Shown here: positions 1 to 8,232 of the stretch, in pieces
How positions within the stretch are numbered: the stretch's first letter is position 1
Layout of the letters: each line of letters starts with the position of its first letter
Assembly: GCA_043814095.1 (NCBI GenBank)
Contig: JBDRKI010000020.1
Span: 1 to 23,307, forward strand
DNA from: Armatimonadota bacterium
GTDB lineage: Bacteria; Vulcanimicrobiota; JACPDS01; JBDRKI01
Length of the DNA stretch: 23,307 nt
Direction of reading: 5' to 3'
The notes under the pieces: model-generated
Told to the model about the DNA's origin: nothing
The model's database searches: none
What the model saw: only the letters and a program-made list of their open reading frames with translations
Program-made: the position numbers and the translations under genes

Positions 1-24
1 GGGCAATCGGCCAAAAAATGGGTT

Positions 25-570
25 TGGCGCCCCCCCTTGGGGTTGACCCCCCCGTCTTGGGGCTTTTGGGGGGGGGGGCCAGACGGCTCCGCTTTGCGCC
101 AGCGGTAATTTGCACAATTACGAAAAAAGCACCTAACCGGCAATAAACTCCCTGACACTGTTTATTGCACAAATACGCTGGTGCATCCCCAAACGGCAAA
201 ATTTTCTTTTCCTCTCCCCGTTTTCACGGGGACAAGTTTTAATGGGGGCGCGCGGGAAATACAATTCTTGATTGGAAGAAAATTTTGCTGTTTGGGGGAG
301 CGGCTTTCCATTTTGGAAAGCCGCGGCGGAGCCGTTGGGCGGGGATCAATAGCGGTGCGAGGGTGCTTGCCAAAGGCAAAGTGCCCGAAGCCCGCGTCTA
401 TAGCGTCAGGGGAAGCCCGATGAAATTGGGCGACTGGGCGACCGCAGGGTGGGAGTCAGCGTCTCAGATCTTTCCTTTTACAGCCGTGAATGAGATTTGG
501 CAGGATTATCCGGATGGTTTGCAAATAAGGAGAGATCGGAGCCAATTTAAATCTATCAAACTTAGATTTT
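25..570 (+). other. Long structured non-coding element (candidate ncRNA or folded ssDNA element) containing a four-way junction
   Basis: Nested inverted repeats: 83-92/326-335 (10 bp perfect), 95-104/176-185, 140-148/160-168, 187-208/276-297 (22 bp, one G-U), 215-221/226-232, 300-310/314-324 (11 bp perfect), 361-371/375-386, 415-420/426-431, 467-477/527-537. The non-Watson-Crick pairs in these stems are G-U on the + strand. No convincing ORF. Confidence 0.6.
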
Positions 571-5365: not shown

Positions 5366-5508
5366 AATATTATCTCTCCTTGCTTAAATATTTCATATAG
5401 GGCTATACAGAATATTTTCTATCTTATTTAAATATATCTTCCTTTTGAGAGAAGGAAATTAAGCTTAAATCAATGAATTTTAATATATTACTTAAAATTG
5501 AGGTTTTT

Positions 5509-6339
5509 ATGAGATTAAAATATTTAATAATTGTATTCTTACTGCTTTTTGCTTTTTCAGTTAATATCGCTTTACCCGATGAAACTCCTGACGGGCTCCC
5601 GTATAAAATATTTAAGCTAAAATATATAAAAGCAAAAGAAGTAGTTCCTATTATAAAGATGTTTATGTCCAAAGACGGCAGGATAGTTCCTGATGAGAGG
5701 CTTAATTCCATAATAGTTGCGGACCATGAGAAAAACCTTATCAAGATACAGGAGTACCTTGATAAAAACGATACTGCCCTGCCGAATGTCATGGTAAACG
5801 CGAAAATCGTCTCTGAAGAAGAACTTTCAAGAACAGGGATACTTATTAACTGGCAACTAACAAACAATTACTGGAGAGCCGCATTTTTGGGGCCGGGAAA
5901 TTATAATTTTGAGAATTCTCTGGAGGCTACCCTTCTTGTTATGAGCAGGCATGAGGGAAAGATAACAATTGGCAGAGATGTCCCCTACCCTCACTGGTTC
6001 TATGTATACACCCAGAACCAGGGATATATCCCCGCCACCACTGTTAAATTCTATAATGTTGATTCAGGTATTGTGGTTACTCCAAGAGTTATTGAAGGCA
6101 CGGATGAAGTAGAATTAACAGTATTTCCTTTTATAAGCTACCAGGCCGATAACAATATACCGGGAGTTGTCAAATACGGCGAGATTCAAACCGTTATAAA
6201 GGTTAAGAATGGACAAAGTGTTGTGCTGGGCGGCAGTAATCAAGGTAAAGACAATATAGTATCAACGGTATTAAACGGATCCATGAAAGAAAAAGGAAAA
6301 TCTAATTTTGTTGTTGTCCTGACAGCTACCATTAAATAA
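5509..6339 (+). CDS. Short secretin-like protein (one Secretin_N/NolW-type domain plus a reduced secretin-like beta-rich C-terminus)
   Basis: Signal peptide, then IFKLKYIKAKEVVPII..DERLNSIIVAD..IQEYLDKND..PNVMVNAKIV, followed by GKITIGRDVPY, VDSGIVVTPRV, QTVIKVKNGQSVVLGG. GAGGT RBS favours ATG 5509. Confidence 0.75.
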   Translation: MRLKYLIIVFLLLFAFSVNIALPDETPDGLPYKIFKLKYIKAKEVVPIIKMFMSKDGRIVPDERLNSIIVADHEKNLIKIQEYLDKNDTALPNVMVNAKIVSEEELSRTGILINWQLTNNYWRAAFLGPGNYNFENSLEATLLVMSRHEGKITIGRDVPYPHWFYVYTQNQGYIPATTVKFYNVDSGIVVTPRVIEGTDEVELTVFPFISYQADNNIPGVVKYGEIQTVIKVKNGQSVVLGGSNQGKDNIVSTVLNGSMKEKGKSNFVVVLTATIK

Positions 6340-6408
6340 TCTTTTGTATTTCAAGGATTTTTGGCGTTAAACCCGTAATATAGTATAATTAAAGCAGAGA
6401 GGTTATTT

Positions 6409-7383
6409 ATGCCTATAGATAAAGTACCCGGTTCAAATTACCCTTCTAAAAGAAACTATAGAAACGGCTTAAGAAAAGCTGCAGATAATATATATACAAC
6501 CGTTAAAAACACAATTAACCTGCCGGGGGCTAAGAGCATTACTGTAACCAAAGGAATTTTCAAAAGATCAAAATACAATTTAATTACCATTGACCCTAAA
6601 CATAATGAAGCGCTGGTATATATTGCCTCACAGAAACCCAATGCTAGCTTTGAAACAAAAAGGATTGATTTCGTGGCCGCTAAATATCCCGGTATTCATG
6701 TTGTTATAAACGGCACATTCTTTAATAATACCCCCGGGGGGGATTTCCAACCACTGGGACCGGTAATCTACAGGCAGGGAAAATACCAGTGGACTCCCAC
6801 AACCGTAAATTATCAGGGAATACCTGTTTATTCCTTTGACAGGCCATTTTTCGCGATTGATAAAAACCATCTGCCGGTAATACGGCAAAGCAAAGGCAAA
6901 CGCGCAGAAGACTTAAAAAAAGAAGGGTATCTGGAACTGCTCGGCGGAGGCGGCCCTTTAATCCAAAACGGAAAAATAATTGTCTCTAAAGAAACACTTG
7001 CCAAGGTCGGTATCTCTCCCCAGACACACCAGATGAACAGTACGCGCCAGAGAACATGTATCGGTATAAATAAAGAAGGTAAGATTTTAATCTGCACTTT
7101 CGGGCACCAGGGAAAACCTGGTTCTGTAAGAAGCGGAGTTACCCTGCAGAATCTTGCCCAATTCATGCTTGACCACGGCGCGAAAGACGCCATGTTTTTT
7201 GATTCCGGAACATCAACCGGATTATACCTGTCAGACGAGAAAACCAAAAGCACCGGTATCCCCAGGAGACAGCCCACTTATTTATTCTTTGTAGATAAGA
7301 AAACAGCAAAATATATTAAGGAACTGGAAGAAAGAAAAGAATTTAATATAAAGAAGCTAAAACTGTATAAAAAGAAAGATTAA
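6409..7383 (+). CDS. Phosphodiester glycosidase (NAGPA-domain) family protein
   Basis: VINGTFF, LGGGGPLIQNG, RTCIGINKEGKILI, GVTLQNLAQFM..GAKDAMFFDSGTSTGLY (variant of LDGGGS). GAGAGG RBS. Confidence 0.8.
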   Translation: MPIDKVPGSNYPSKRNYRNGLRKAADNIYTTVKNTINLPGAKSITVTKGIFKRSKYNLITIDPKHNEALVYIASQKPNASFETKRIDFVAAKYPGIHVVINGTFFNNTPGGDFQPLGPVIYRQGKYQWTPTTVNYQGIPVYSFDRPFFAIDKNHLPVIRQSKGKRAEDLKKEGYLELLGGGGPLIQNGKIIVSKETLAKVGISPQTHQMNSTRQRTCIGINKEGKILICTFGHQGKPGSVRSGVTLQNLAQFMLDHGAKDAMFFDSGTSTGLYLSDEKTKSTGIPRRQPTYLFFVDKKTAKYIKELEERKEFNIKKLKLYKKKD

Positions 7384-7404
7384 AATAATAAAGGGGCTTT
7401 TCTG

Positions 7405-8232
7405 TTGTTTAAAAAATATTCATTATCTTTTTTAATAATATTCGGCCTTCTGCTTTTTATGCAGCAGGCTGATATAGTTTATGCCCAAAACAAAACAGGC
7501 GCATTTGCCGAACATTACCGTTTCTCCATACCTGACAGTTTAAAACAGCATTACAACCTATTAAGAAAAGAATATTATTATGATTATGCCCAGAAAAGAA
7601 AACAGGGAGATCTAAGATATTATGTGGCAATGGTACTGCATGATATAGGTGTTCTGAAATGGGAAGAATGCGATAATTATAAAAAGAAATACGGTGTAAT
7701 GTGTAATCAGATATCAAGGGAGAAACTCCATTCAATCCTTCATTATATATATTCTAATTATCCCGGTTCCTGCAAAGCCGAACAGATTTTTAACTATGTT
7801 AAAGCAATCGTGCCGTATAAAGGAGAAAAAGGCGATTATCCGAGATTCCCGGTTGAAACAATGTATTATCACGGGGGCGACTGCGAAGATTCAGCAGCAG
7901 CTGTAGCGGCGTTATTGAAAATAGCTGGATACACAACCGGCCTTTATACCATACATGATTACAAAAATAATATTCATCACTGTGTATGTGTGTGCAAGGT
8001 CCCTGAATCTATTGAAGGCGATAAATGGAGAATAAAAGAGTATTACGACTGGGGACACTGCTGGCTTATACTTGATCCTGCTTATCATCACATGTTCGGA
8101 TATAATCCGTCATGGGTAAAAAGCTATCTGGAAAAAGGTAATTTCTTTTCAATTCCGGATGAAGCGGCAAACTGCCTTTTAATAGATTATAATACTTATA
8201 AAACTCACTGTAAAAAGATGGATCAAAAATAA
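7405..8232 (+). CDS. Secreted transglutaminase-like (Cys-His-Asp) domain protein
   Basis: Signal peptide ending VYA-Q; YPRFPVET..GGDCEDSAAAVAALL..GY, HHCVCV, WLILDPA. TTG start with AGGGG RBS. Confidence 0.75.
   Translation: MFKKYSLSFLIIFGLLLFMQQADIVYAQNKTGAFAEHYRFSIPDSLKQHYNLLRKEYYYDYAQKRKQGDLRYYVAMVLHDIGVLKWEECDNYKKKYGVMCNQISREKLHSILHYIYSNYPGSCKAEQIFNYVKAIVPYKGEKGDYPRFPVETMYYHGGDCEDSAAAVAALLKIAGYTTGLYTIHDYKNNIHHCVCVCKVPESIEGDKWRIKEYYDWGHCWLILDPAYHHMFGYNPSWVKSYLEKGNFFSIPDEAANCLLIDYNTYKTHCKKMDQK

Follow-up and report, generated by a model that had tools for sequence, protein, structure and literature searches.

A four-way junction module at the likely end of a tRNA-targeting serine-recombinase cassette

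Results

Features of the locus

The window analyzed in this study is the complete contig C20 (GenBank JBDRKI010000020.1; 23,307 nucleotides) from the assembly of an Armatimonadota bacterium. Since the window is the whole contig, there was no sequence to the left of the fold in which genes could be inspected; the genes to its right were ordinary, including an amidohydrolase, kinases and transporters. Genes for a short secretin (288 aa), a phosphodiester glycosidase and a transglutaminase-like protein lie in a row at 5473-8232. The right end of the contig (23200-23307) resembled the start of contig C124 in reverse complement and is probably a repeated IS end.

The features at the left end of the window are summarized in Table 1. 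The open reading frames at 181-423 and 285-599 had no Pfam match. The first-pass annotation had recognized no Rfam family in the fold, and our Rfam search agreed with it, as the window gave no match at the gathering score (best E-value 0.62, for 1-720). Readings as a group II intron, a CRISPR or a tRNA-like element were dropped, as no match was found for any of them.

Table 1. Coordinates of the features at the left end of the window.
Feature	Position	Strand	Remarks
Contig tail	1..82	.	probably error-rich; the element continues here with inflated homopolymers
Enlarged four-way junction module of the att-arm family	83..335	+	fold, homology, family covariation
Closing stem, 5' strand	83..93	+	pairs with 325-335
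Arm 1, enlarged	95..185	+	91 nt versus about 16-23 nt in the family; site of almost all differences between close homologs
Arm 2	187..297	+	clear homology to the Patescibacteria family; GCGCGC at 248-253
Nested extra hairpin within arm 2	215..232	+	absent from the aligned small family members
Arm 3, perfect 11-bp hairpin	300..324	+	TTT loop, where the family shows a tandem G-A hairpin
Second end module, GCGAGGG...GCCCGA hairpin	352..393	+	also at the start of C18; folding z -1.5, not above shuffles
Separated C-terminal end of a large serine recombinase, element-side att arm	506..544	-	WLRSLLICKPSG, then stop
att core, 3' end of host tRNA-Asn	536..544	+	12 nt identical, 536-547
Outer att arm	545..566	+	TATCAAAC at 554-561

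Predicted structure and stability of the fold

The first-pass annotation had described a closing stem that encloses three tightly packed arms, and every helix was found where it had been placed. The closing stem 83-92/326-335 was extended by T93.G325. Arm 1 contained a 10-bp base with G98.T182, a hairpin at 105-121 and the stem 140-148/160-168, while the arm 2 stem (187-208/276-297) consisted of 22 bp with a single G.T at 195.289, and arm 3 paired 300-310 with 314-324. The hairpin at 215-232 was longer by 22 nt in two metagenomic copies (L002 and L004).

Folded as RNA, 83-335 had a minimum free energy of -122.1 kcal/mol and a z-score of -9.87; none of 200 shuffles was as good, and the energy was far better than that of the shuffles. 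The z-score as DNA was -9.93, and 21 further 253-nt segments taken from the window ranged from +3.4 to -4.2. The complement folded as RNA with -114.1 kcal/mol (z -8.1), and as DNA the + and - strands gave -72.9 and -69.2, respectively. The preference for the + strand, which had been proposed earlier, was real yet small.

Several smaller relationships were observed around the fold. The arm 1 loop (149-159) is complementary to 402-413, 240 nt downstream, a possible long-range pairing whose pyrimidine run was kept in L002, X1, X3 and X6. A 13-nt direct repeat occurs at 110-122 and 165-177, 55 bp apart, and its second copy was invariant in close homologs. Positions 460-469 are complementary to the letters preceding position 69 in X1, which may form an outer stem around the entire end region. 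Additionally, the CCCCGTTTTCACGGGG hairpin (window 215-240) recurred as a small nested palindrome on C39 (about 430-480) and in L044.

Independent copies in metagenomes

A pattern scan of metagenomes identified three loci, two of which were true homologs; the third, L003, was a chance match. L002 covered 66-345 at 89% and then ran into an IS21-like transposase, and L004 covered 222-430 at 93%. Contigs from public runs covered the module at 69-377 (X1), 72-427 (X6) and 190-370 (X10), with further contigs at 69-271 (X3), 240-345 (X13) and 255-427 (X17); the identity of the independent contigs to the window was mostly 89-99%. No matching contig was found in run X11 and none over the module in run X2, where a metatranscriptome contig was identical to 1010-1261; contigs of this kind cannot show absence. 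The IS21-like element of L002 (302-1780) lies right after the junction module and shares 80% identity with a copy that the host genome carries on C85.

The presence of near-identical copies in other metagenomes indicated that the module is not an artefact. The first-pass annotation had allowed for an assembly artefact, and the module does begin only 82 nt from a contig end that looks error-rich; however, the independent contigs, including those spanning 69-377, 72-427, 190-370 and 255-427, refuted this explanation for 83-430, and it is almost certainly wrong. The tail itself is a different matter. No homologous contig covered 1-50, 40-62 was likewise uncovered, the X1, X3 and X6 contigs carried other letters before 69-72, and L002 differed at 66-83; 1-82 is thus probably a low-quality, error-rich read tail.

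Among the variable sites listed for close homologs within 83-335 (at least 20), 14 were unpaired and 6 were paired (P 2e-4), and the unpaired ones (at least 14) were all located in arm 1. The listed changes included three G.T-compatible and two A.C changes, with no compensatory pair among those listed in these close copies.

Other searches for the module gave little. A BLAST search of plasmid and phage sequences with 1-600, a DNA search of 60 relatives and a pattern scan of genome contigs returned no match. A DNA search of 401 Patescibacteria genomes yielded four short chance-like matches, pattern scans of viral contigs gave chance matches or none, and the host-phylum pattern scan was near the control level. 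The closing-stem pattern had two chance matches among 301 genomes, and the window-type tail pattern one poor match among 201.

Attachment site and split recombinase tail

The fold lies 209 nt inside the attachment site at 536-544. Window positions 536-547 correspond to the 3' end of the tRNA-Asn gene on contig C98 plus three bases, and the outer att arm was common to the arms behind both tRNA-Gln genes and on C18, C39, C60 and C117. A public serine recombinase, P0070, ends in ...NNWLPSLLACKPSG, and its last 42 residues were found to be split across the end of C98 and the att site of the window. In particular, residues 467-498 matched the C98 end directly behind tRNA-Asn (31/32 identical, E-value 5e-14), and residues 496-508 matched window 547-509 (11/13 identical, E-value 4e-4 in a short-peptide search). 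A search with the P0070 tail region found only P0070 itself. The host assembly contained no full recombinase gene; 32 codons (C98) and 13 codons (window) matched P0070, and no contig overlap joined C98 to C20, or the start of C20 to any contig. The divided P0070 C-terminus and the shared tRNA-Asn end are explained most simply if C98 and C20 represent opposite ends of a single tRNA-Asn element with an unassembled middle.

The module of L004, X3, X6 and X17 is followed by the antisense of a short peptide, WLxLLDKIRTFF..., and then by AGCCA, whereas the window has a different tail (544-506). Large serine recombinases of the Patescibacteria type can end in the IRTFF peptide as an alternative C-terminal tail; among them, the L038 enzyme contains the Pfam domains Resolvase, Recombinase and Zn ribbon. 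In the 120 best matches to this enzyme, the tails diverge after 'WL'; 35 were tRNA-antisense and 7, by regular expression, of the IRTFF type. Joined-form tails in public proteins can equally stem from internal or tandem junctions.

The spacing of the GTTCG box also differed between arms and tRNAs. In 81/96 arms, the box and the CCA end were 29 nt apart, a spacing partly fixed by the search pattern but seen at 28-29 nt in model-selected loci too, versus 24 nt in three tRNAs; the att arm of the window has GTTTG at 28 nt. The difference between 29 and 24 nt equals the 5-bp shift of the recognition box between the attP and attB half-sites described for large serine recombinases in the available text of PMC3783163; compared with the tRNA target, the element arm has its box farther outward. 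The module is a conserved terminal part of mobile cassettes, which are likely inserted at tRNA genes by a serine recombinase.

Further att-like AGCCA...ATCAA sites were observed in the host genome on C3, C80, C18, C39, C60 and C117. Two of them lie directly behind tRNA-Gln genes, each followed by a similar structured stretch of about 230 nt whose reverse strand we take to read like a recombinase C-terminus, and four lie elsewhere; C18 begins with an IRTFF arm. The extra sites suggest several recombinase-less cassettes stacked at tRNA genes. A related recombinase was also present in one viral locus (L049).

A junction family in Patescibacteria

The arm pattern occurred in 66/301 genomes of one Patescibacteria class (that of G203) and in none of the control. 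Just inside the arm, about 20 of the 96 arm ends carried a four-way junction of about 160 nt, a count based on a strict regular expression (12) and a looser one (19, plus 1 truncated). Rfam had no match in five loci of this family. For a sequence-only MAFFT alignment, 18 sequences were used, with L061 (inverted) and L069 (truncated) left out and L094 added. In this alignment, 23/40 pairs changed on both sides and 88.8% of the cells were paired; slid controls paired 49-54%, and 0/500 shuffles matched, a test that is inflated by the relatedness of the sequences. In the alignment of 50 distinct hits fitted to model R1, 36/40 pairs covaried. The pairings are thus conserved across the family.

Model R1 matched 53/150 genomes of one Patescibacteria class, 11 of which had given training sequences. 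It also found window 188-296 (E-value 6e-5, both strands) as the sole locus in the host genome; it returned nothing in 100 host-phylum genomes, under filters that also missed the host genome itself. A sequence-only HMM of 50 Patescibacteria junctions ranked window 180-332 (+) first in the 2.5-Mb genome with an E-value of 1.6e-6, and the next other locus had 0.18. GCGCGC was present in 38/50 family members, and arm 3 in most of them read GCGAG-C/T-loop-G-CGAGC, with tandem G-A pairs on one strand only. The homology to the Patescibacteria family is firm for arm 2 only; arms 1 and 3 differ. The window junction is thus an enlarged variant of the family, with the topology and arm 2 in common but with a far longer arm 1, another arm 3 and an extra nested hairpin.

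Architecture of complete relatives

We hand-picked 14 regions in which the hits lay on opposite strands or near one another. Inverted repeats around the cargo were 296-393 bp long with 99.5-100% identity in four of them, and one region had a perfect 129-bp repeat. The repeats were 70-93% alike in six regions, plus L176 facing the other way; L178 had only part of an inverted repeat and L177 none. A recombinase gene adjoined 6/14 regions. Four of seven regions examined further showed a common order: a tRNA or tRNA-like sequence, the recombinase gene, the att core, and then the cargo in the junction-bearing repeat. In these four, the recombinase gene was located inside its own inverted repeat of 124-134 bp (97-100%), and an internal inverted att junction was seen in complete relatives. 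L185 had cargo repeats and short palindromic spacers without a recombinase.

The junction read 5' to 3' toward the att core, i.e., outward. The arm motif followed it within 140 nt in 41/52 distinct hits, many loci having first been found through the arm. Restriction-modification or methylase genes were present in the cargo of 8 of 12 elements. Among the 53 cargo ORFs of these 12 elements, none had a Pfam match to a Rep, relaxase, HUH, primase, polymerase or RT domain, no terminal-protein gene was recognized, and 20 ORFs had no match at all; the cargo thus offers no built-in source of single strands. The first-pass annotation had proposed a large non-coding RNA or a single-stranded DNA signal of a mobile element. 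The link to a mobile element was supported, whereas the more specific suggestion of an oriT or HUH substrate found no support in these 53 ORFs.

Variation in the layout was also observed. L120:112-761 is a gene-free mini-element with the junction alone between two inverted att arms. L036, L059, L077, L172 and L185 have palindromic spacers of 26-33 nt between the tRNA end or another cassette and the inverted att core, and these look like two-sided target half-sites.

Discussion

DNA or RNA as the folding molecule

To the 47 family ends compared, the loops on the outward strand contributed 21 GNYA, 11 GNA and 1 GNRA, and CGAG outnumbered its complement CTCG on that strand by 128 to 36. Mirror counts restricted to Watson-Crick pairs gave 10 GNYA and 9 GNA outward, versus 3 GNA, 5 GNRA and 1 TTCG inward. 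The loop rule behind the first counts favours the outward strand, and the loop counts rest on related sequences. The recombinase-side repeats had CGAG hairpins on their outward strand as well, and the window's own junction had neither a GNYA or GNA loop nor a CGAG block. G.T versus A.C was 89 to 46 in cells and 15 to 14 in columns, a weak asymmetry. RNA prefers GNRA and UUCG loops, and tandem G-A pairs occur in RNA too. The accessible text of PMC10085684 describes GNA and GNNA loops, as well as CGAG blocks, as stable motifs in DNA, and that of PMC5449611 places GNA loops in the 3' overhangs of Streptomyces telomeres. Taken together with the tandem G-A pairs, the family loops favour folded single-stranded DNA over RNA.

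Proposed role and alternatives

We tentatively propose, at somewhat less than even confidence, that the module is a folded single-stranded DNA end signal, probably for second-strand priming. A serine-recombinase element would have inserted at the tRNA-Asn gene, with the fold just inside its att site. During movement the cassette would become transiently single-stranded, candidate causes being competence uptake and strand displacement, and the outward-reading strand would fold, presumably as DNA. The folded end might then let host enzymes prime the second strand, or it might protect the cassette. Because complete relatives carry the module in both inverted repeats, either strand would have a copy near its 3' end. 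The host encodes ComEC and DprA, which are common genes (10-11 of 14 controls).

The main rival, which we consider rather unlikely, is that the module acts as RNA within outward cargo transcripts or the 3' UTR of the recombinase mRNA, where a cis-acting terminator, antiterminator, processing or stability element, or a small non-coding RNA, would insulate element and host from each other. The very strong RNA fold and the covariation fit RNA equally, GCGCGC is self-complementary and conserved, the module follows the stop codon of the recombinase tail encoded on the other strand, and the inward strand has the five GNRA loops and the one TTCG loop. Tn916 offers a precedent, as the available text of PMC11658703 describes a terminator at its end and a probable RNA antiterminator acting in cis. 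However, GNRA is nearly absent from the outward strand (1 versus 21 GNYA), positions 1-800 hold a terminator-like site at chance level only and no promoter-like site, and the junction stands at both ends whatever the direction of the cargo genes. A stand-alone non-coding RNA gene, one of the options first put forward, is less likely because the motif goes together with att arms in the family; an RNA role in general keeps some probability.

A role in double-stranded DNA appears improbable: the module would be an accessory region for recombination, with protein sites or a cruciform aiding synapsis or recombinase direction, and the pairing would reflect palindromic sites. Its tight position beside the att arm (38/52 with a regular-expression match to the arm within 60 nt), the folding of both strands, and the near invariance of 158-346 among close homologs, loops included, agree with such a role. 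Yet many att arms lack the module, with about 20/96 having one, the tandem G-A hairpins can form on just one of the strands, and protein sites hardly account for covariation with sequence turnover over the length of a 22-bp stem. Quite improbable, too, is a functionless pile of nested palindromic insertions, paired via template switching and hitch-hiking in the element arm. Nested hairpin insertions are indeed seen (215-232, and the 22-nt addition in L002 and L004), and the module order varies among loci, with arm 2 inverted at L061 and L120, but the three-arm topology and loop motif are kept in 50 diverged family sequences and the model matches 53/150 genomes.

Going beyond the single-stranded end signal, the cassettes could be linear, with terminal inverted repeats, a serine recombinase that remains on the 5' ends after cleavage and doubles as terminal protein, 3' folds resembling Streptomyces telomeres that serve priming or protection, and arms kept identical by strand displacement and panhandle pairing. 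We regard this extension as highly doubtful; if true, one system would be common to Patescibacteria and a non-Patescibacteria groundwater host.

Comparison with known systems

The relatives share several features with the large serine recombinase elements A118/LI, phiC31 and Bxb1, namely an enzyme with Resolvase, Recombinase and zinc-ribbon domains and an att core duplicated from the target, here the tRNA-Asn end at 536-547. Relative to the available text on those elements (PMC3783163), the features that differ here are long structured inverted repeats at both cargo ends, a further inverted repeat enclosing the recombinase gene, an internal inverted att junction, and a recombinase C-terminus swapped at the crossover.

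The sso of rolling-circle plasmids and ICEs (ICEBs1 sso1 and pBAA1 sso, in the accessible part of PMC4595007) likewise has a multi-stem fold of similar size, an orientation fixed relative to the element and a function tied to structure, the function being predicted in our case. A multi-stem single-stranded structure is found here in the predicted fold (z -9.9) and in the family covariation. In contrast, relatives of the module lack a Rep or relaxase among the 53 cargo ORFs and often carry two inverted copies per element, and owing to the missing Rep and relaxase we do not class the module as an sso.

The Streptomyces telomere 3' overhangs, as described in the accessible text of PMC5449611, also have packed palindromes, GNA loops and sheared G-A pairs on a strand running 5' to 3' toward the end. 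GNA loops and G-A pairs are present in the family but absent from the window's junction, and the elements here were found integrated, with no terminal-protein gene recognized in the 53 ORFs. The nearest described islands are the Tycheposons (10.1101/2020.12.28.424599), which carry cargo, target tRNA genes, leave partial copies of the tRNA behind and give rise to islands. In the available text they differ in using tyrosine recombinases (910/937) and in many of them encoding replication genes, and that text uses neither 'hairpin' nor 'secondary structure'.

Significance

We found no published description of the structured motif or the island family in the mostly open-access literature that was searched. 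The motif and its islands are a variant of tRNA-targeting serine-recombinase elements, with a motif that is absent from Rfam. The enlarged copy resides in a 2.5 Mb genome (99% complete) of a phylum other than Patescibacteria, and its occurrence there together with a Patescibacteria-type recombinase end points to the exchange of cassettes across phyla. The analysis defines a covariation-supported structured motif on common defence-carrying islands, present in a third of the sampled genomes of one Patescibacteria class. These islands have no recognizable replication or transfer genes, and the motif offers a compact handle on a possible single-stranded or linear DNA stage in their movement.
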